Shown: positions 5,256 through 24,720 of the stretch, piece by piece
Layout: each line of letters opens with the position of its first letter
Position numbering within the stretch: position 1 is the first letter of the stretch
Assembly: GCA_963721735.1 (NCBI GenBank)
Contig: CAVRKX010000003.1
Location: 18,027 to 82,026, forward strand
Direction: 5' to 3'
From: an uncultured Actinomycetes bacterium
Lineage (GTDB): Bacteria; Actinomycetota; Thermoleophilia; Solirubrobacterales; 70-9
Length of the DNA stretch: 64,000 nucleotides
Program-made: the position numbers and the translations under genes
Notes under the pieces: generated by a model
What the model saw: only the letters and a program-made list of their open reading frames with translations
The model's database searches: none
Told to the model about the DNA's origin: nothing

Positions 5256-5446
5256 ATGGGCGCGGCTGGTTTCGAACCAGCGACCTCTCGCGTGTGAAGC
5301 GGCGACTTCTTCGAGGTCTCCAAGTTGCCGAAATCCGCATTGCCAAGCGGAATACGCCGCTGTGCGGGATGGCGATCTGCTACTCGCGGATTACCAGGGA
5401 TTACGCACGATTACCTGGGATTCGGGCAGAAAGGCGGCCCTCTGCC
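5256..5446 (-). repeat. tRNA-Val 3'-half copy D plus type-2 arm
   Basis: Core 5256-5301 matches exactly. The arm contains a CCGC..GCGG hairpin, a duplicated GATTACC(N)GGGATT motif, and a GGCAGAAAGG..CCTCTGCC hairpin. Confidence 0.85.
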
Positions 5447-5543
5447 ATGTGGGGTTGGAAGGGATTCAACGCTGCAACCGATCGGGAGAGCGGGGGCTGA
5501 GCATTGACGAGACCGCAAGGCGACGGTCGTTTCGACGCAGGAG

Positions 5544-7121
5544 TCAATGGTGCTCGAATTCCCGCTGACGTAGCTCGATTCGCCGGATCTTGCCGGTCAA
5601 CGTCTTCGGCAGCTCATCGACGAATTCGATCTTTCGCGGATAAGCGTATGCCGACAGGTGCCCCCGGACGAACGTCTTGATCTCGCCGGCGAGCTGCTCG
5701 GACGGCTCCTTCCCTTCGCCCAGGACCACGAACGCCTTGACGACGTGACCGCGCGTCGGGTCGGGCGAGGCGACCGCCGCGGCCTCGCGTACGGCAGGAT
5801 GCTCGATGCAGGCCGACTCGACCTCAAACGGACCGATCCGGTAACCGGCAGAGATGATCACGTCGTCGGCCCGCCCGGCATACCAGTAGTAGCCGTCGTC
5901 GTCCTCCTGCGCGGCATCCTTGGTGTGGAACCACTCGCCGCCAAAGGTCTCCTCGGAGGCCTCCGGGTTTTTCCAATGACCGAGCGGGTAATGCGGGTTC
6001 GACCGCGCCCGGAGGCAGATCTCGCCCCTTTCCCCGGGCGCGACCGGCTGCTCATCCTCGTCGAGGATCCTCACCTCCCAGCCGGGCATCGGCCTTCCCA
6101 TGGAGCCCTCGCGAACCTCCATGAACGGGAAGTTCGCGCACAACGGGTAGGACTCCGTCAGGCCGTAGTAGTCGAGCACCGTGACCCCGTATTGCTCGCG
6201 GAACCAGCGGATCGCCTCGGGATTCAGCGGCTCGCCCGCGGAGCAGACGATGCGGAACTTCTGTGGGTAGCGCTCGCCGGCGTCGTCGATCGCCATCATT
6301 GCGCGCATCGCGGTGGGCGTGGTGAACACGTTCGTGACCCCGTGCTTCGAGAGCACCTCGAGCTGCTTCGCGGGGTCGAACCCGCCCTCCCGCGCATACA
6401 CGAACTGGGTGGCGCCGAGGCGCCATGGTCCCAGCAACGGGGCGATTCCAGCCGCCCAAGCCCATTCCCCCATTCCGTGGAAGAGCTCGCCGTCACGAAC
6501 GTCGTGGCAATAGACGAACTCCTCGTGGGCGAGGATGTAGCGGTGGGCGTGGAGGATCCCCTTCGCGAGCCCAGTGGTCCCGGAGGAGTAATAGAGCTGT
6601 GCCGGGTCGTCGGCGGCCGTGTCGACCGTGTCGGCGTAATCGTCGACGCCGGCCAGTAGTCCATCGTCGAGGATCACCACCTCGTCGACGAGGTCATCGG
6701 GCATCCGGTCGGCCTGATCGGGCGAGCAGACGATCAGCTTCGGCTGCGAGTCCGCCACCCGATGCCGGATGCCCTCGTCACCGTAGAGCACCGACATCGA
6801 AAGGAGGATCGCGCCGAGCTTCCAGGTCCCAAAGAAGATGGCCGCGGTCTCGGGCGAGGCCGGGGCGACGACGGCGATGCGGTCGCCACGCTGGACCCCG
6901 CGCGCGCGCAGGACGTTCGCGGCTCGCGCGGCGAGCGACTGCATCTCCCCCCAGGTCGCATGGCGCTCGGTGCCCCGGAAGTCCTCGAACACCATCGCCA
7001 GCTTGTCGCGGGGGTGCTTGTCGCAGACGTCCGCTGCGATGTTGTAGCGGGGCGGGACCTCCCATCGGTGACCCGCGCAAGCCTCCTCGTAGGACCTTGC
7101 TCTAGTCGTCGTAGTGGCCAT
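5544..7121 (-). CDS. AMP-dependent synthetase/ligase (acyl-CoA synthetase family)
   Basis: 525-aa ORF with the AMP-binding motif YYSSGTTGLAKGILH and the C-terminal TGKIRRIELR motif. A GGAGGAG RBS lies upstream of the ATG. Confidence 0.9.
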   Translation of the reverse strand: MATTTTRARSYEEACAGHRWEVPPRYNIAADVCDKHPRDKLAMVFEDFRGTERHATWGEMQSLAARAANVLRARGVQRGDRIAVVAPASPETAAIFFGTWKLGAILLSMSVLYGDEGIRHRVADSQPKLIVCSPDQADRMPDDLVDEVVILDDGLLAGVDDYADTVDTAADDPAQLYYSSGTTGLAKGILHAHRYILAHEEFVYCHDVRDGELFHGMGEWAWAAGIAPLLGPWRLGATQFVYAREGGFDPAKQLEVLSKHGVTNVFTTPTAMRAMMAIDDAGERYPQKFRIVCSAGEPLNPEAIRWFREQYGVTVLDYYGLTESYPLCANFPFMEVREGSMGRPMPGWEVRILDEDEQPVAPGERGEICLRARSNPHYPLGHWKNPEASEETFGGEWFHTKDAAQEDDDGYYWYAGRADDVIISAGYRIGPFEVESACIEHPAVREAAAVASPDPTRGHVVKAFVVLGEGKEPSEQLAGEIKTFVRGHLSAYAYPRKIEFVDELPKTLTGKIRRIELRQREFEHH

Positions 7122-7182
7122 TGCTCTCCTCCGGTTGCGCCCCCCTCGAAGTGTCCTACATGGAGCCGAGTTGACAAAGCGA

Positions 7183-7228
7183 AGGGGCGCGGCTGGTTTC
7201 GAACCAGCGACCTCTCGCGTGTGAAGCG
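7183..7228 (-). repeat. tRNA-Val 3'-half copy E (core only)
   Basis: 45 of 46 nt match the consensus block. No long arm follows, only a short GCGTTCCT similarity to copy G. Confidence 0.85.
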
Positions 7229-7328
7229 GTGCGTTCCTCGCGCGCCCGAGGCCCCGCCTTCGATGAGTTCAATGACCGCACCAGGTCTACCTGGCAGGGG
7301 CGCAGCTACCGACCAAAAGGAGACGATC

Positions 7329-10794: not shown

Positions 10795-13700
10795 GTGGGA
10801 GATGCAGCGCCAGTTCGGACCACCGACGGTGCGCGAGGGCGGACTCGACGCAAGTTCGCGCCGATTCTCGTCGTCCTTGCAGCCATCGGGTGTGTTCTCG
10901 TCGGAGCTGTAGTCCAAGCACCGGCGGCGGGCCAGGCCTCACTGACTACGGACAAGTCGGACTACACGCCCGGCGAGGTCGTCCATATCTCCGGTACCGG
11001 CTTCGTGCCGGGTGACGAGTACGCCGTGCCGGTGAAACGACCGGACGGCAGCATCGTCCTGATCGATCCCGTTGAGCACACCGCGACGCAAGGGTGGGGT
11101 GCCGCGACCGCTGACGCCACCGGCAACCTGACCTACGACTACCAGCTCAACGGGGTGGCGGGCGTCTATGAGGCGCGAGCCTATCCGGCCAACTGGTCGG
11201 GCGAATGGAGCGAGACGCCGATTGCGAGCGTGACCTTCACGGATGCGTCCGCCAATCTCGACCAGTGCACGAATGGCGGCGTTGGCGACACACCGGAGCC
11301 CTGTAAGGGGTCCAATGGTTCCGAGATAGACGGCTTCAAGAACTGGGTGAACGGGAACGTGAATGCCACGAAGGCGCACTGGCGTGAAGGCGAGTTTCTC
11401 TCGTACCGCGACACGATCTCAATCGATGTGGCCGGGACACACGTGTTCCAGATCCACTACGACACGGTGCGCAGCGGAAAGCACGCGATCGATTACTTGG
11501 GATCGTTTGACGCTACTGAGACCACGTCCTCCACCGGATCGACTTTCCACGCGAATAACAACAATCCGTGTGCCGACAAACTTCCTGCCGCTAACTGCAG
11601 CCCGTCGTCTCCGGCTGACTCCTTCCCGGTTCCGGCAGCCACGCTCGTGAACTGCGCCACCTCAACGGGGACGCCGCCTGCTTCCCAGGTTTCCGGATCC
11701 TTCAAGATCTTCGGCGCCAACTCGCCCGATATAACCGCCGTCAACTACGTGAATCAGAACGTGGTGTCTGGCACCGGGCAGTGCAGCACGAGCATCGCGA
11801 TCACGTTCACTACGAGTGGAGCCGGCACAGTGGTGCTGGCTTGGGGTGGGCATATCGCCAGCGAGAGCGATTGGGGCGCCGGAAACTCTGCGTCCTTTAT
11901 CAGCGGGTCCCCGTACCACATGGCTCAGGACAGTCTCAAGTCGAACGGAGTGAACCAGAACGGCGTGGGATCCCAGGATCTCCCACTTGCCGCCTCGGCG
12001 GTTGTGTTTACGCCAAGCATCACGACCGACGTTAAGGACTCGAACGGGAGCTCGGTCACGAATGGCTCGGTCCCGATCGGGACGACGGTCCATGACACGG
12101 CGACCCTCTCCGGTGCCTCCAGCAACGCCGGAGGCACCGTCACCTACAAGCGCTTCTCCACCATCGATTGCACGGGTGGCTCGACGGATCAGAACGTCAC
12201 GGTGACGAACGGAAACGTGCCAAACTCCGCCAACTTCACGCCGACGACTCCCGGCTCCTATAGCTACAGGGCCGTGTACAGCGGGAACAACGGGCCCCCA
12301 CAGAACCTCGGAGCCACGGCTCCCTGCGAGCCGTTCACGATCACCAAGGCCACCCCGGGGATCACGACCACGGTCAAGGACGCCAACGGGGCCACGGTCG
12401 ACAACGACGCCAACAAGGCGGCCCTGGGGACGACCGTCCACGACACCGCCACCCTCTCCGGCCAGGTCGGCTCGCTGAGCCTCAACGGGACCGCCACGGT
12501 CACCTACAGCTTCTTCAAGACCGGCGACTGCTCGGGGACCGCCTTCTCGACCGAGGACAAGACCGTGGCCGCCAACGGCACCGTCCCCGACTCCTCACCG
12601 AACGGGCCCCTGGGAGCCGGCGACTACTCCTACCAGGCGACCTACAACGGCAACGCCAACTACAGCTCCAAGACCGGCGCCTGCGAGCCGTTCACGATCA
12701 CCAAGGCCAGCCCGGGGATCACGACCACGGTCAAGGACGCCAACGGGGCCACGGTCGACAACGACGCCAACAAGGCGGCCCTGGGGACGACCGTCCACGA
12801 CACCGCCACCCTCTCCGGCCAGGTCGGCTCGCTGAGCCTCAACGGGACCGCCACGGTCACCTACAGCTTCTTCAAGACCGGCGACTGCTCGGGGACCGCC
12901 TTCTCGACCGAGGACAAGACCGTGGCCGCCAACGGCACCGTCCCCGACTCCTCACAGAACGGGCCCCTGGGAGCCGGCGACTACTCCTACCAGGCGACCT
13001 ACAACGGCAACGCCAACTACAGCTCCAAGACCGGCGCCTGCGAGCCGTTCACGATCACCAAGGCCAGCCCGGGGATCACGACCACGGTCAAGGACGCCAA
13101 CGGGGCCACGGTCGACAACGACGCCAACAAGGCGGCCCTGGGGACGACCGTCCACGACACCGCCACCCTCTCCGGCCAGGTCGGCTCGCTGAGCCTCAAC
13201 GGGACCGCCACGGTCACCTACAGCTTCTTCAAGACCGGCGACTGCTCGGGGACCGCCTTCTCGACCGAGGACAAGACCGTGGCCGCCAACGGCACCGTCC
13301 CCGACTCCTCACCGAACGGGCCCCTGGGAGCCGGCGACTACTCCTACCAGGCGACCTACAACGGCAACGCCAACTACAGCTCCAAGACCTGCGCCTGCGA
13401 GCCGTTCACGATCACCAAGGCCACCCCGGGGATCACGACCACGGTCAAGGACGCCACGGGGCCACGGTCGACAACGACGCCAACAAGGCGGCCCTGGGGA
13501 CGACCGTCCACGACACCGCCACCCTCTCCGGCCAGGTCGGCTCGCTGAGCCTCAACGGGACCGCCACGGTCACCTACAGCTTCTTCAAGACCGGCGACTG
13601 CTCGGGGACCGCGTTCTCGACCGAGGACAAGACCGTGGCCGCCAACGGCACCGTCCCCGACTCCTCACCGAACGGGCCCCTGGGAGCCGGCGACTACTCC

Positions 13701-16700
13701 TACCAGGCGACCTACAACGGCAACGCCAACTACAGCTCCAAGACCGGCGCCTGCGAGCCGTTCACGATCACCAAGGCCACCCCGGGGATCACGACCACGG
13801 TCAAGGACGCCAACGGGGCCACGGTCGACAACGACGCCAACAAGGCGGCCCTGGGGACGACCGTCCACGACACCGCCACCCTCTCCGGCCAGGTCGGCTC
13901 GCTGAGCCTCAACGGGACCGCCACGGTCACCTACAGCTTCTTCAAGACCGGCGACTGCTCGGGGACCGCCTTCTCGACCGAGGACAAGACCGTGGCCGCC
14001 AACGGCACCGTCCCCGACTCCTCACCGAACGGGCCCCTGGGAGCCGGCGACTACTCCTACCAGGCGACCTACAACGGCAACGCCAACTACAGCTCCAAGA
14101 CCGGCGCCTGCGAGCCGTTCACGATCACCAAGGCCAGCCCGGGGATCACGACCACGGTCAAGGACGCCAACGGGGCCACGGTCGACAACGACGCCAACAA
14201 GGCGGCCCTGGGGACGACCGTCCACGACACCGCCACCCTCTCCGGCCAGGTCGGCTCGCTGAGCCTCGACGGGACCGCCACGGTCACCTACAGCTTCTTC
14301 AAGACCGGCGACTGCTCGGGGACCGCGTTCTCGACCGAGGACAAGACCGTGGCCGCCAACGGCACCGTCCCCGACTCCTCACCGAACGGGCCCCTGGGAG
14401 CCGGCGACTACTCCTACCAGGCGACCTACAACGGCAACGCCAACTACAGCTCCAAGACCGGCGCCTGCGAGCCGTTCACGATCACCAAGGCCACCCCGGG
14501 GATCACGACCACGGTCAAGGACGCCAACGGGGCCACGGTCGACAACGACGCCAACAAGGCGGCCCTGGGGACGACCGTCCACGACACCGCCACCCTCTCC
14601 GGCCAGGTCGGCTCGCTGAGCCTCAACGGGACCGCCACGGTCACCTACAGCTTCTTCAAGACCGGCGACTGCTCGGGGACCGCGTTCTCGACCGAGGACA
14701 AGACCGTGGCCGCCAACGGCACCGTCCCCGACTCCTCACCGAACGGGCCCCTGGGAGCCGGCGACTACTCCTACCAGGCGACCTACAACGGCAACGCCAA
14801 CTACAGCTCCAAGACCGGCGCCTGCGAGCCGTTCACGATCACCAAGGCCACCCCGGGGATCACGACCACGGTCAAGGACGCCAACGGGGCCACGGTCGAC
14901 AACGACGCCAACAAGGCGGCCCTGGGGACGACCGTCCACGACACCGCCACCCTCTCCGGCCAGGTCGGCTCGCTGAGCCTCAACGGGACCGCCACGGTCA
15001 CCTACAGCTTCTTCAAGACCGGCGACTGCTCGGGGACCGCGTTCTCGACCGAGGACAAGACCGTGGCCGCCAACGGCACCGTCCCCGACTCCTCACCGAA
15101 CGGGCCCCTGGGAGCCGGCGACTACTCCTACCAGGCGACCTACAACGGCAACGCCAACTACAGCTCCAAGACCGGCGCCTGCGAGCCGTTCACGATCACC
15201 AAGGCCACCCCGGGGATCACGACCACGGTCAAGGACGCCAACGGGGCCACGGTCGACAACGACGCCAACAAGGCGGCCCTGGGGACGACCGTCCACGACA
15301 CCGCCACCCTCTCCGGCCAGGTCGGCTCGCTGAGCCTCAACGGGACCGCCACGGTCACCTACAGCTTCTTCAAGACCGGCGACTGCTCGGGGACCGCCTT
15401 CTCGACCGAGGACAAGACCGTGGCCGCCAACGGCACCGTCCCCGACTCCTCACCGAACGGGCCCCTGGGAGCCGGCGACTACTCCTACCAGGCGACCTAC
15501 AACGGCAACGCCAACTACAGCTCCAAGACCGGCGCCTGCGAGCCGTTCACGATCACCAAGGCCACCCCGGGGATCACGACCACGGTCAAGGACGCCAACG
15601 GGGCCACGGTCGACAACGACGCCAACAAGGCGGCCCTGGGGACGACCGTCCACGACACCGCCACCCTCTCCGGCCAGGTCGGCTCGCTGAGCCTCAACGG
15701 GACCGCCACGGTCACCTACAGCTTCTTCAAGACCGGCGACTGCTCGGGGACCGCGTTCTCGACCGAGGACAAGACCGTGGCCGCCAACGGCACCGTCCCC
15801 GACTCCTCACCGAACGGGCCCCTGGGAGCCGGCGACTACTCCTACCAGGCGACCTACAACGGCAACGCCAACTACAGCTCCAAGACCGGCGCCTGCGAGC
15901 CGTTCACGATCACCAAGGCCACCCCGGGGATCACGACCACGGTCAAGGACGCCAACGGGGCCACGGTCGACAACGACGCCAACAAGGCGGCCCTGGGGAC
16001 GACCGTCCACGACACCGCCACCCTCTCCGGCCAGGTCGGCTCGCTGAGCCTCAACGGGACCGCCACGGTCACCTACAGCTTCTTCAAGACCGGCGACTGC
16101 TCGGGGACCGCGTTCTCGACCGAGGACAAGACCGTGGCCGCCAACGGCACCGTCCCCGACTCCTCACCGAACGGGCCCCTGGGAGCCGGCGACTACTCCT
16201 ACCAGGCGACCTACAACGGCAACGCCAACTACAGCTCCAAGACCGGCGCCTGCGAGCCGTTCACGATCACCAAGGCCACCCCGGGGATCACGACCACGGT
16301 CAAGGACGCCAACGGGGCCACGGTCGACAACGACGCCAACAAGGCGGCCCTGGGGACGACCGTCCACGACACCGCCACCCTCTCCGGCCAGGTCGGCTCG
16401 CTGAGCCTCAACGGGACCGCCACGGTCACCTACAGCTTCTTCAAGACCGGCGACTGCTCGGGGACCGCGTTCTCGACCGAGGACAAGACCGTGGCCGCCA
16501 ACGGCACCGTCCCCGACTCCTCACCGAACGGGCCCCTGGGAGCCGGCGACTACTCCTACCAGGCGACCTACAACGGCAACGCCAACTACAGCTCCAAGAC
16601 CGGCGCCTGCGAGCCGTTCACGATCACCAAGGGCGACACCTTGACTGCGACCCAGATCCACGACTCCGACCACAACGAGGTCCTCTCGGTCGGGCTCGGC

Positions 16701-17846: not shown

Positions 17847-18019
17847 ATGGGCGCGGCTGGTTTCGAACCAGCGACCTCTCGCGTGTGAAGCGGCGCGTTC
17901 CTAGAGGTATCCGAGGGCCAGAATCCCGCATTGCAAAGCGGAATGCGCCCCTGGACGGGATGGCGGCCTGCGGCGCGCGGATTACCGGGGATTGAGGCAG
18001 AGAGATCGGCATTCTGCCC
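17847..18019 (-). repeat. tRNA-Val 3'-half copy G plus type-2 arm
   Basis: Core 17847-17892 matches exactly. The arm has a CCGC..GCGG hairpin, a single GATTACCGGGGATT motif, and a GGCAGAGAG..ATTCTGCC hairpin. Confidence 0.85.
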
Positions 18020-18123: not shown

Positions 18124-18822
18124 TCACACTCGCTGGTCTGCCGCAAAGGGAGGGATGACGCGCGAAAGCCATTGCTTGGCCGCCGGGACGTGCGCGGAGT
18201 CGATTTGGTGGGCGACGTCGGACTCGTGGTAGCTGACCTCGAGTCCGCCGGCCTCGAGCAGGTCGCGGGCCCGGCGGGCAAAGCCGACCTCGATGACTGG
18301 GTCGCGGCGGCCGTGGGCGATGAAAACGCGGGCGCTGGTGCGATCGGCGAGATGCGGCTGCCAGCCCTCTACGGTGGGTATGAACCCCGAGAACGCGAGG
18401 ATGCCCGCCGGCACGGGCCGCTCGCCGGCCAGCCCCATCGAGTAGCACATCACGGACCCCATCGAGAAGCCGCCAAGGACGGTCTGATCGGGGCTGATTC
18501 CGGTGCGCTGCCAGAGCTCATCGTGAAAGTCGGCGAGCTTGCCGTACGCCGTGTGGAACGTCTCTGGATCCGGGTAGCCCACACGCGGGACCATGTACCA
18601 GTGGTTCCCTGGCCAGCCGCGAAGCGTGAGGGGGCCGCGCGGCGTTGCCACGTGCAGGTGGCGCTGCGGGTCGAGCGCGTCCGCCAGGCTGAGCAGGTCG
18701 TGCTCGTCGGTCCCGCGGCCGTGGTGAAGGACCAGCAGGCCGGCGGACTCGCCGGCCGCCGGGCGCTCTTGGTACACGAGCGAATTCACGTGCGCGACGA
18801 CTTTACGGCGACAGGCGCCCAT
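18124..18822 (-). CDS. phospholipase/carboxylesterase family alpha/beta hydrolase
   Basis: 232-aa ORF with the nucleophile elbow GFSMGS and the typical LVLHHGRGTDEHDLL and AHGRRDPVI segments of the esterase/dienelactone-hydrolase-like family. Confidence 0.85.
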   Translation of the reverse strand: MGACRRKVVAHVNSLVYQERPAAGESAGLLVLHHGRGTDEHDLLSLADALDPQRHLHVATPRGPLTLRGWPGNHWYMVPRVGYPDPETFHTAYGKLADFHDELWQRTGISPDQTVLGGFSMGSVMCYSMGLAGERPVPAGILAFSGFIPTVEGWQPHLADRTSARVFIAHGRRDPVIEVGFARRARDLLEAGGLEVSYHESDVAHQIDSAHVPAAKQWLSRVIPPFAADQRV

Positions 18823-18827
18823 CTGGG

Positions 18828-19017
18828 ATGGGCGCGGCTGGTTTCGAACCAGCGACCTCTCGCGTGTGAAGCGACAGGGCCAATGTCTTGCCGGGAGCCC
18901 AGAAACCGCATCACCATGCGGTATGCACCATCATGGGCAGTGGCGGCTCCGCGCAGTGGATTGCCGTGGATTACGCACGATTACCGGGGATTCAGGCAGA
19001 AAGGGCGATTTCTGCCC
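18828..19017 (-). repeat. tRNA-Val 3'-half copy H plus type-2 arm
   Basis: Core 18828-18873 matches exactly. The arm has hairpin ACCGCAT-CACC-ATGCGGT, GGATTACGCACGATTACCGGGGATT, and a perfect hairpin GGGCAGAAA-GGGCGA-TTTCTGCCC. It is roughly 85-90% identical to copy I by eye over about 190 nt. Confidence 0.9.
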
Positions 19018-19289
19018 AAAGGGAGCGCGCATGCATGACCACCCGAGAGTGCCGGCGGGCGCCATGCCTCGCCCGGCTATCGCAAGTGGTCAGGGCCCCA
19101 GCTGCCGGGAAGCTCGATCATCGCTCAAGCCTACGACTCATCGGCTGGCGGCCGACACCCGAACGGGCAGAAAGCCGCTTTCGGCGCGTGCCGGACCGGC
19201 TTCGTGCCTCACTTGTACAAGCCGTGAGCGAGCCCGGCGGCTCCGCCCGGCCGGTCACTTTTCGCGCCGGCCGGGAGGAGCCGATTCGC

Positions 19290-21813: not shown

Positions 21814-22002
21814 ATGGGCGCGGCTGGGTTCGAACCAGCGACCTCTCGCGTGTGAAGCGGGAGGGCCAATCTCTTGCTGGGAGCCCAGAAACCGCATCAC
21901 CATGCGGTATGTACCTCCATGGGCAGTGGCGGCTCCGCGCGGCGGATGCCGTGGATTACGCACGATTACCGGGGATTCGGGCAGAAAGGGCGATTTCTGC
22001 CC
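21814..22002 (-). repeat. tRNA-Val 3'-half copy I plus type-2 arm
   Basis: Core 21814-21859 has 1 mismatch, in the T loop at 21828. The arm is collinear with copy H, including both hairpins. Confidence 0.9.
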
Positions 22003-24248: not shown

Positions 24249-24648
24249 CAGAACACTCCTGTAGCTGGTTGGCTTTGGTTGGTCCAACAGTTGAACCGGC
24301 GAATGGCATCAGACTATCGGCACCATGCGTTGAGGCTGGCTGCTCAGAAAGGACAAGCGAGGACGAGAAAGTTGTTGGGGAGGACGCGCTCGCCGCGATG
24401 CCGGACATTCGCCACGAGGTGCAGGAGGTCGCGCCTGACGGCGACGCCGAGCGGTGCATGGTTCGACCTAATAACCGGAGGAACGTTGTGCGGGCGCGCA
24501 ACCAAGCCCCCTCGTCGGAGGAGTAACTCTGCGAACGGAGTGGGAGATTCGAACTAAACGGGCAGAAAGCCGATTCGGCGCCGCCCTGGAGCAGCACCTT
24601 GCTTGCATCATCCTCCCAAAACCTGCCCAATAGCAGGCGTTTTGCGGA

Positions 24649-24720
24649 TGGGCGCGGCTGGTTTCGAACCAGCGACCTCTCGCGTGTGAAGCGAGCGCTC
24701 TCCCACTGAGCTACGCGCCC
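24649..24720 (-). tRNA. tRNA-Val (anticodon CAC)
   Basis: 72-nt cloverleaf read by hand. Acceptor GGGCGCG/CGCGCCC. D arm GCTC-AGTGGGA-GAGC. Anticodon arm CTCGC-TTCACAC-GCGAG. Variable loop AGGTC. T arm GCTGG-TTCGAAA-CCAGC. Discriminator A. CCA is not encoded. Confidence 0.95.

Follow-up and report, generated by a model that had tools for sequence, protein, structure and literature searches.

A conserved arm beside tRNA-Val halves in Solirubrobacterales as the probable P arm of an integrative element attachment site

Is the DNA that follows four tRNA-Val halves in an uncultured member of the Solirubrobacterales the template of a structured RNA or a site at which DNA is recombined? The initial annotation of this locus had proposed both: a second family of elements with its recombination arm sites, or an RNA of roughly 190 nt whose 3' domain is tRNA-like. 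We addressed the question in a window of 64,000 nt (the whole stretch of DNA analysed; contig C3, positions 18027-82026), which belongs to a MAG of 2.58 Mb that is 85% complete.

The tRNA-Val cassette array and its type-2 modules

The 3' part of tRNA-Val(CAC) is present in 10 copies, all on one strand, in the first 25 kb of the window. One copy lies in the intact gene (24649-24720, minus strand; identified with ARAGORN and Rfam), which adjoins an SRP RNA and is the primary attachment site. The other nine are halves spread over 729-23758 on the same strand as the intact gene, each comprising its last 47 bases; they start with the 5' strand of the anticodon stem and end one base beyond the discriminator. 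These halves split 24 kb into cassettes with one or two genes apiece, for which Pfam recognised DUF5122 and PD40 propellers, an AMP-binding enzyme, an alpha/beta hydrolase, an S74 tail-fibre-like protein, PepSY and DUF1428. No recombinase was found by Pfam among the cassette genes of the window, PF00589 had no match on contig C3 and no integrase adjoins the array; nor did PF00589 match near arrays in this genome or in those of the same genus. The window cassettes are att-bounded and carry no integrase or transfer genes (Pfam), which is the structural definition of a CIME.

Several other features of the array were observed. Within a giant Big_3_5/PD40 surface-protein gene lie 12 near-identical tandem repeats of 357 bp (12323-16670), and because one repeat has 356 bp the reading frame of the gene is split at about 13548/13635. 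Directly 3' of the tRNA end (24600-24648), and at many other loci (e.g. L070, L072 and L077), the sequence AAAAC-CTGCC..GCAGG-TTTT forms a terminator-like hairpin that would act in both directions and apparently arrives with the incoming element, as does the tRNA 3' part. On the minus strand, the alpha/beta-hydrolase gene has its first in-frame start at 18822-18828, 6 nt from the tRNA half of module H, which implies either that any promoter lies within the neighbouring module, in its core or arm, or that the gene is transcribed by read-through from upstream.

Four modules consist of the 47-bp tRNA-Val(CAC) 3' copy followed by the type-2 arm of about 145 bp. As the initial annotation had reported, this arm follows the halves at 5256, 17847, 18828 and 21814, and modules H and I are close while D and G have diverged further. 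Measured against H, module I (21814..22002) is 94% identical over 190 nt and module D (5256..5446; delimited by alignment and BLAST) is 74% identical over 177 nt, whereas the match of module G (17847..18019) in the alignment is limited to the tRNA half and the distal block, two of the four decamers described below being absent from its arm. The similarity of the modules is far above chance (BLAST E values from 1e-25 to 1e-78).

In module H, the tRNA-Val(CAC) 3' part that forms the att core (18828..18874, minus strand) is identical to 24648-24694 of the intact gene, and the type-2 arm extends over 18875..19017 as delimited by three alignments (A1, A2 and A3) and external copies. The arm contains a first, short inverted repeat near the core, IR1 (ACCGCAT-CACC-ATGCGGT, 18905..18922), of which only ACCGC/GCGGT is general. 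Farther from the core come four decamers of the GATT(G/A)C type (GATTGCCGTG GATTACGCAC GATTACCGGG GATTC, 18959..18993), with starts at 18959, 18969, 18979 and 18989, and then a second inverted repeat, IR2 (GGCAGAAA-N6-TTTCTGCC, 18995..19016), whose stem is invariant in 39/39 copies and which we propose as a pair of arm-type integrase sites. The earlier count of GATTACC(N)GGGATT was right for D (twice) and G (once), but the first copy reads GATTGCCGTGGATT in H and has a 1-nt deletion in I; a better description of the repeat is a series of four GATT decamers spaced at exactly 10 bp. Neighbouring modules have a type-1 arm, which is laid out like the type-2 arm but with other sequences, namely four GGATGTGCG decamers and then a long hairpin.

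Conservation of the arm and integrases at tRNA-Val

Genomes and metagenomes of soil Solirubrobacterales yielded more than 100 further copies of the arm, and nearly all of them adjoin the same tRNA-Val half. The arm is present in genomes of the same genus and the same family. Among genome contigs it was found at 34 loci, all but one of them assigned to Solirubrobacterales, to Actinomycetes/Actinomycetota or to an uncultured bacterium, and it was found on 38 metagenome contigs and on none of the viral contigs. Sequencing runs that contain the arm stretch were DNA soil metagenomes only, with short contigs on which no usable joint from an excision was seen.

A recognisable Val core adjoins 80 of these copies, 69 of which are distinct and were used to compute conservation. 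The order core, IR1, decamers, IR2 is kept in one orientation in all 69, and in these as in the four window copies the arm adjoins, in fixed orientation, a core with the same sequence as the target tRNA has in its 3' part; the few arm copies that lack a core have truncated ones. Across the 69 copies, column identity is 90-99% in the first 10 bases past the anticodon loop, in CAGAAACCGCAT..AAGCGGTA, in the full decamer block and in both arms of IR2. It is 40-70% in both spacers, which are saturated, and in the IR2 loop. Such block-wise conservation fits discrete binding sites at a fixed spacing.

The cassettes behave as units, in which arm and cargo have separate histories. Cassette D (5256-7230) recurs in another genome (L077) at 92.8% identity, and the homology stops exactly at both cores, beyond which the neighbours differ. 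Between the two, the third codon positions of the gene are 93% identical and the arms 76% identical, but the 97 nt that separate arm and gene only 36%, and the arm in this pair thus appears to have been exchanged or to be under a different evolutionary regime. The same gene is therefore found with arms of 76% identity, while H and I have 94%-identical arms and unrelated genes. We also observed, in comparing window 5303-5543 with L077, that the genes of these orthologous AMP-binding cassettes are 93-99% identical.

In three genomes of the same genus or related ones, an integrase gene reads into an intact tRNA-Val gene. One such integrase, P0122 (447 aa, encoded on contig G201:C37), founds a family and has about 80 residues ahead of a SAM-like core-binding domain. 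Most of its best 20 matches in 201 sampled genomes have tRNA-Val(CAC) or tRNA-Val(GAC) as a neighbour; the remainder adjoin other tRNAs or have none within the locus. Four relatives with 50-56% identity (in G144, G093, G100 and G185, from related genera) are each part of a complete element of 6.7-9 kb with the tRNA gene at one end and a distal copy of the tRNA 3' part at the other, the order in window orientation being core, arm, cargo, integrase, P' and tRNA.

The distal arms of these four elements align with the type-2 arm block by block (alignment A3): AAACCCGCATTCCCAAGCGGAAT of the integrase-bearing elements aligns with IR1, GATTGCCG.AGTTTGCGG.CGAT with the decamers and the inverted repeat TTGGGCAC..GTGCCCAA with IR2. 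The half-site of that last repeat, GGGCAC, also occurs twice in the P' arm of all four elements, inside the 3' end of the integrase reading frame. The closest relatives of P0122 (P0123, 100%; P0124, 84%; P0125, 72%) form a group with mutual identities of 72-100%, and all have GATTGGGCAGAA(A/T)TGGGCAGAAATCGCC about 100 nt before the tRNA-Val core. This stretch consists of two GGGCAGA sites 10 bp apart, and GGGCAGA is the half-site of the type-2 IR2. These placements point to a heptamer that is common to both arms and switches with the integrase subfamily: GGGCAC in the four complete elements, and GGGCAGA in the type-2 IR2 and in the P' arm of the P0122 group. Such switching would be expected of arm-type integrase sites.

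In the window itself, a single GGGCAGA (24560..24566, plus strand) lies within GGGCAGAAA, 88 nt before the intact tRNA core, and is a possible remnant of a P' arm site; for comparison, the paired GGGCAGA of L179, L208-L213 and L215 lies about 100 nt before the core. Another GGGCAGA (19165..19171, plus strand) was found by motif match in AACGGGCAGAAAGCCG, a motif shared with 24555-24581.

Complete elements of this kind encode a small HTH protein besides the tyrosine integrase. In the closest P0122 relatives, an HTH protein of 134 aa and a TrwC relaxase (292 bits) are encoded just ahead of the integrase gene, and the master elements of P0125 and P0126 likewise encode a TrwC relaxase and a small HTH protein.

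We made further observations at these loci. The P0122-type integrase reading frame (L179, i.e. G201:C37, 6950-8290, minus strand; L208-L213) has no stop before the att site and reads through the P' arm into the tRNA-Val gene, which implies that attL encodes its last 70 or so residues and that excision would alter them. Another integrase type, of 435-441 aa and unrelated to the first (L178 on G117:C5 and L180 on G196:C42), also reads into an intact tRNA-Val(CAC) and has a P' region with CGGATG-like motifs that recall the type-1 decamer, and it may be the partner of the type-1 arm. In L215 (2036-2366), a tRNA-Val half comes after a P0122 relative (84%), together with an arm of a third type that has TGATGCCCA twice as a direct repeat and a different hairpin.

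The P arm reading and its alternatives

We consider it probable, from these comparisons, that the type-2 arm works as DNA and is the P arm (the attR side, distal to the tRNA) of integrative mobilizable elements that use the 3' part of tRNA-Val(CAC) and a tyrosine integrase of the P0122 subfamily. Of the two initial proposals, that of recombination arm sites of a second element family is favoured in three respects: the arm is tied to an att core, complete elements with an integrase at tRNA-Val have a homologous distal arm, and the heptamer of its IR2 is found again on the integrase-proximal side in elements of the matching subfamily. Some observations weigh against the P arm reading. The co-variation of the heptamer amounts to a single switch, from GGGCAC to GGGCAGA. 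Both element ends were seen on one molecule for the GGGCAC subfamily only, and no single contig carries a GGGCAGA-type integrase and a type-2 arm at opposite ends of an element; both ends of the GGGCAGA subfamily occur in one genome only, G201, in which P0122 lies at the intact tRNA-Val and several type-2 arms lie on other contigs.

In lambda-type systems, attR consists of the P arm and the core and attL of the core and the P' arm, and at excision the two are joined by integrase, Xis and bending proteins. By analogy, the GGGCAGA sites would be arm-type sites bound by the N-terminal domain of the integrase, while the phased GATT decamers and the core-proximal inverted repeat may bind integrase, the small (Xis-like) HTH protein or a host bending factor. 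Each type-2 cassette keeps the core and the P arm and usually has no P' sites, a lack that also counts against the P arm reading. The integrase-less cassettes may keep the arm because core and P arm make up a complete attR. An element that integrates at the tRNA would bring attL, integrase, HTH protein and relaxase, and recombination of its attL with the attR of a resident cassette could excise the element and the cassettes as one circle, which would explain why only the P arm is kept. This route of accretion and cis-mobilization has been described for CIMEs (PMC5704250).

It is also possible, if unlikely, that the arms are inactive remnants used by no recombinase, fossil scars that resemble one another through common descent or gene conversion only. 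A P0122 homologue was found neither in the 85%-complete genome of the window nor in four same-genus genomes with arrays (G138, G169, G183 and G196), and the only two PF00589 matches in G138 are both XerC/D-like in score. This absence of the cognate integrase weighs against the P arm reading too and suggests that the arms may be idle at present. The lack of conserved P' arms on the cassettes and the one to three mismatches in the distal-most cores would likewise be expected of scars. The blocks of the arm, however, are conserved in 69 distinct copies from many genomes despite the saturated spacers, and the arm of cassette D has kept its decamers and IR2 stem at an overall identity as low as 76%. 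Cores that are 98-100% identical and identical cassettes in different array contexts also argue against decay.

We think it very unlikely that IR1 and the bases following it are an oriT for the TrwC-type relaxase of the master elements, by which excised cassettes would then become mobilizable. In MOBF oriTs a nic site follows a hairpin, and IR1 is conserved across both integrase subfamilies with no co-variation with the integrase, in agreement with such a role for the relaxase that the master elements encode. Nevertheless, the arm has no sequence match to a known oriT, the IR1 stem has just 4-5 bp in most copies and the position beside the att core is already explained by recombination.

A different integrase, P0001, directly follows a type-2 arm in G201:C15, where the order is core, arm and integrase gene, with the gene starting about 250-400 nt past the arm. 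This order speaks against the P arm reading and raises the possibility, of very low probability in our view, that the arm is instead the integrase-proximal arm of the P0001 family; a 78%-identical relative (L176), whose integrase gene is likewise preceded closely by a tRNA half in reverse complement, adds to it. Yet G201:C15 is a single case among about 110 arms, relatives of P0001 with 69-80% identity lack the type-2 motif, and the relative with a recognisable tRNA half uses a different tRNA and has its integrase promoter about 25 nt from the core. The P0001 family would also leave the GGGCAGA match unexplained, and no cassette has kept a fragment of the P0001 integrase gene: a search past the arms detected no integrase-gene remnants, and homology to the G201:C15 copy stops 0-55 nt after IR2.

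P0001 was examined as a candidate cognate enzyme in the 201 genomes and the protein database and was set aside; its relatives lack the type-2 motif and, where a tRNA is recognisable, use other tRNAs, and it is treated as a neighbour. On one metagenome contig (L175), a P0001 relative (80%) is flanked by genes for a large terminase, a ParB/methylase and an HTH_17 protein, which indicates that the P0001 integrase family also serves prophage-like elements.

For an RNA reading, we examined covariation and folding of the arm. The two hairpins had been described as conserved with compensatory changes, but among 17 pairs in 39 distinct arms (alignment A2) there is one double change, a number also attained in 478 of 500 shuffles. 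Covariation scored 0.059 in the arms and 0.052 in shuffled alignments, and 62/500 shuffles reach 0.059. When all pairs of columns were scanned for covariation, the hits were scattered, reflected mostly subfamily splits and formed no helix. Hairpin 1 has its extended upper stem in H and I only (pair 52/59 is paired in 2/39 copies), whereas the seven core pairs of the IR2 stem are invariant or nearly so. The earlier statement that structure is conserved despite sequence drift is thus wrong in detail: the stems and repeats are themselves conserved sequence, and the drift is confined to loops and spacers. Stems conserved as sequence neither support nor refute a fold.

RNAalifold gave -10.5 kcal/mol with a covariation term of 0.07 for the 39 arms, and IR2 was the sole element predicted on both strands, for the 39 arms as for 69 arms. 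Single sequences are not more stable than their shuffled versions (z from -0.4 to -1.4 on the minus strand and from +0.3 to -1.4 overall), and Rfam was empty both at gathering thresholds and at E<=1. No promoter-like or terminator-like site was found in the arms by a consensus scan. The initial annotation had named the remnant of a known gene's UTR as an alternative; the first gene past the arm is a minus-strand gene at 24 loci and a plus-strand gene at 22, so that the arm is not a UTR of its neighbour. Thus, although the four type-2 cassettes of the window all have a gene on the tRNA strand that ends just before the arm, and although IR2 folds into a stable hairpin on either strand, a minus-strand transcript with two hairpins and a tRNA-like 3' domain, or a structured 3' UTR, is extremely unlikely given these folding, covariation and neighbour-strand results and an eighth IR2 stem pair that is mostly G.U on the plus strand, i.e. 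C-A on the proposed minus-strand RNA.

Meaning and likeness to known systems

Read as a P arm, an apparent structured-RNA candidate becomes an interpretable recombination site with named candidate partners (the P0122-type integrase, the small HTH protein and the TrwC relaxase), and the integrase-less cassette array at tRNA-Val gains a concrete, testable mechanism. The combination of a tRNA-Val half, phased GATT decamers and a GGGCAGA inverted repeat also provides a signature for cataloguing such cassettes in soil metagenomes. As a tentative extension, soil Solirubrobacterales might run a tRNA-Val-anchored cassette system in which attR-only single-gene cassettes are spread conjugatively by TrwC-relaxase elements of the matching integrase subfamily, with two arm types for two integrase specificities and with arm and cargo reassorted. 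Provided that mobilization of the cassettes still goes on, abundant and uncultured Actinomycetota of soil would have in it a means of exchanging accessory genes. The setting of the arm is unusually cassette-rich, but the arm itself is an ordinary kind of feature.

Like integron attC sites, the arm belongs to a recombination site that is repeated along an array, with one copy at an end of every single-gene cassette. In attC, structure rather than sequence is conserved, and the site recombines with IntI as a folded single strand. In contrast, the type-2 arm has conserved sequence blocks with no covariation and a core made of a tRNA half, and there is no IntI or attI platform. An integron cassette/attC assignment was therefore rejected, no integrase adjoining the array and the arm being conserved as sequence.

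In the tycheposon islands of Prochlorococcus, successive integrations at one tRNA push older elements outward (bioRxiv 10.1101/2020.12.28.424599), and partial tRNAs between elements and degenerated elements scattered through the islands resemble the array examined here (bioRxiv 10.1101/2020.12.28.424599). Tycheposons, however, belong to another phylum and have another integrase and relaxase complement, whereas the cassettes here are much smaller and their arms sharply conserved.

The CIMEs and tandem accretion described for ICESt1/ICESt3 of Streptococcus thermophilus involve att-flanked elements without integration or transfer genes (PMC5704250). They share with this array the tandem stacking at the 3' end of a target gene and the proposed mobilization in cis by an incoming element of the same specificity. 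Differences are that up to nine cassettes, mostly of single genes, are stacked here, that only one arm is conserved, that the same arm is found on more than 100 cassettes with unrelated cargo and that mobilization is predicted only. At present, the arm fits the definition of att sites retained on CIME-like cassettes.

The layout of the arm also has parallels in the attP/attR sites of lambda-like systems (phage lambda, mycobacteriophage L5 and pSAM2). Shared features are a core that equals the 3' part of a tRNA gene, short repeats in helical phase 100-170 bp from the crossover region, and the presence of one motif in both arms. The extra N-terminal region of heterobivalent tyrosine integrases and the gene for a small HTH protein beside the integrase gene are also shared. 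The sequences here are unrelated to those sites, one predicted site pair is inverted rather than direct, and the arm copies lie mostly on integrase-less cassettes. By this analogy, the type-2 arm would work like the P arm of a lambda-type attachment site.
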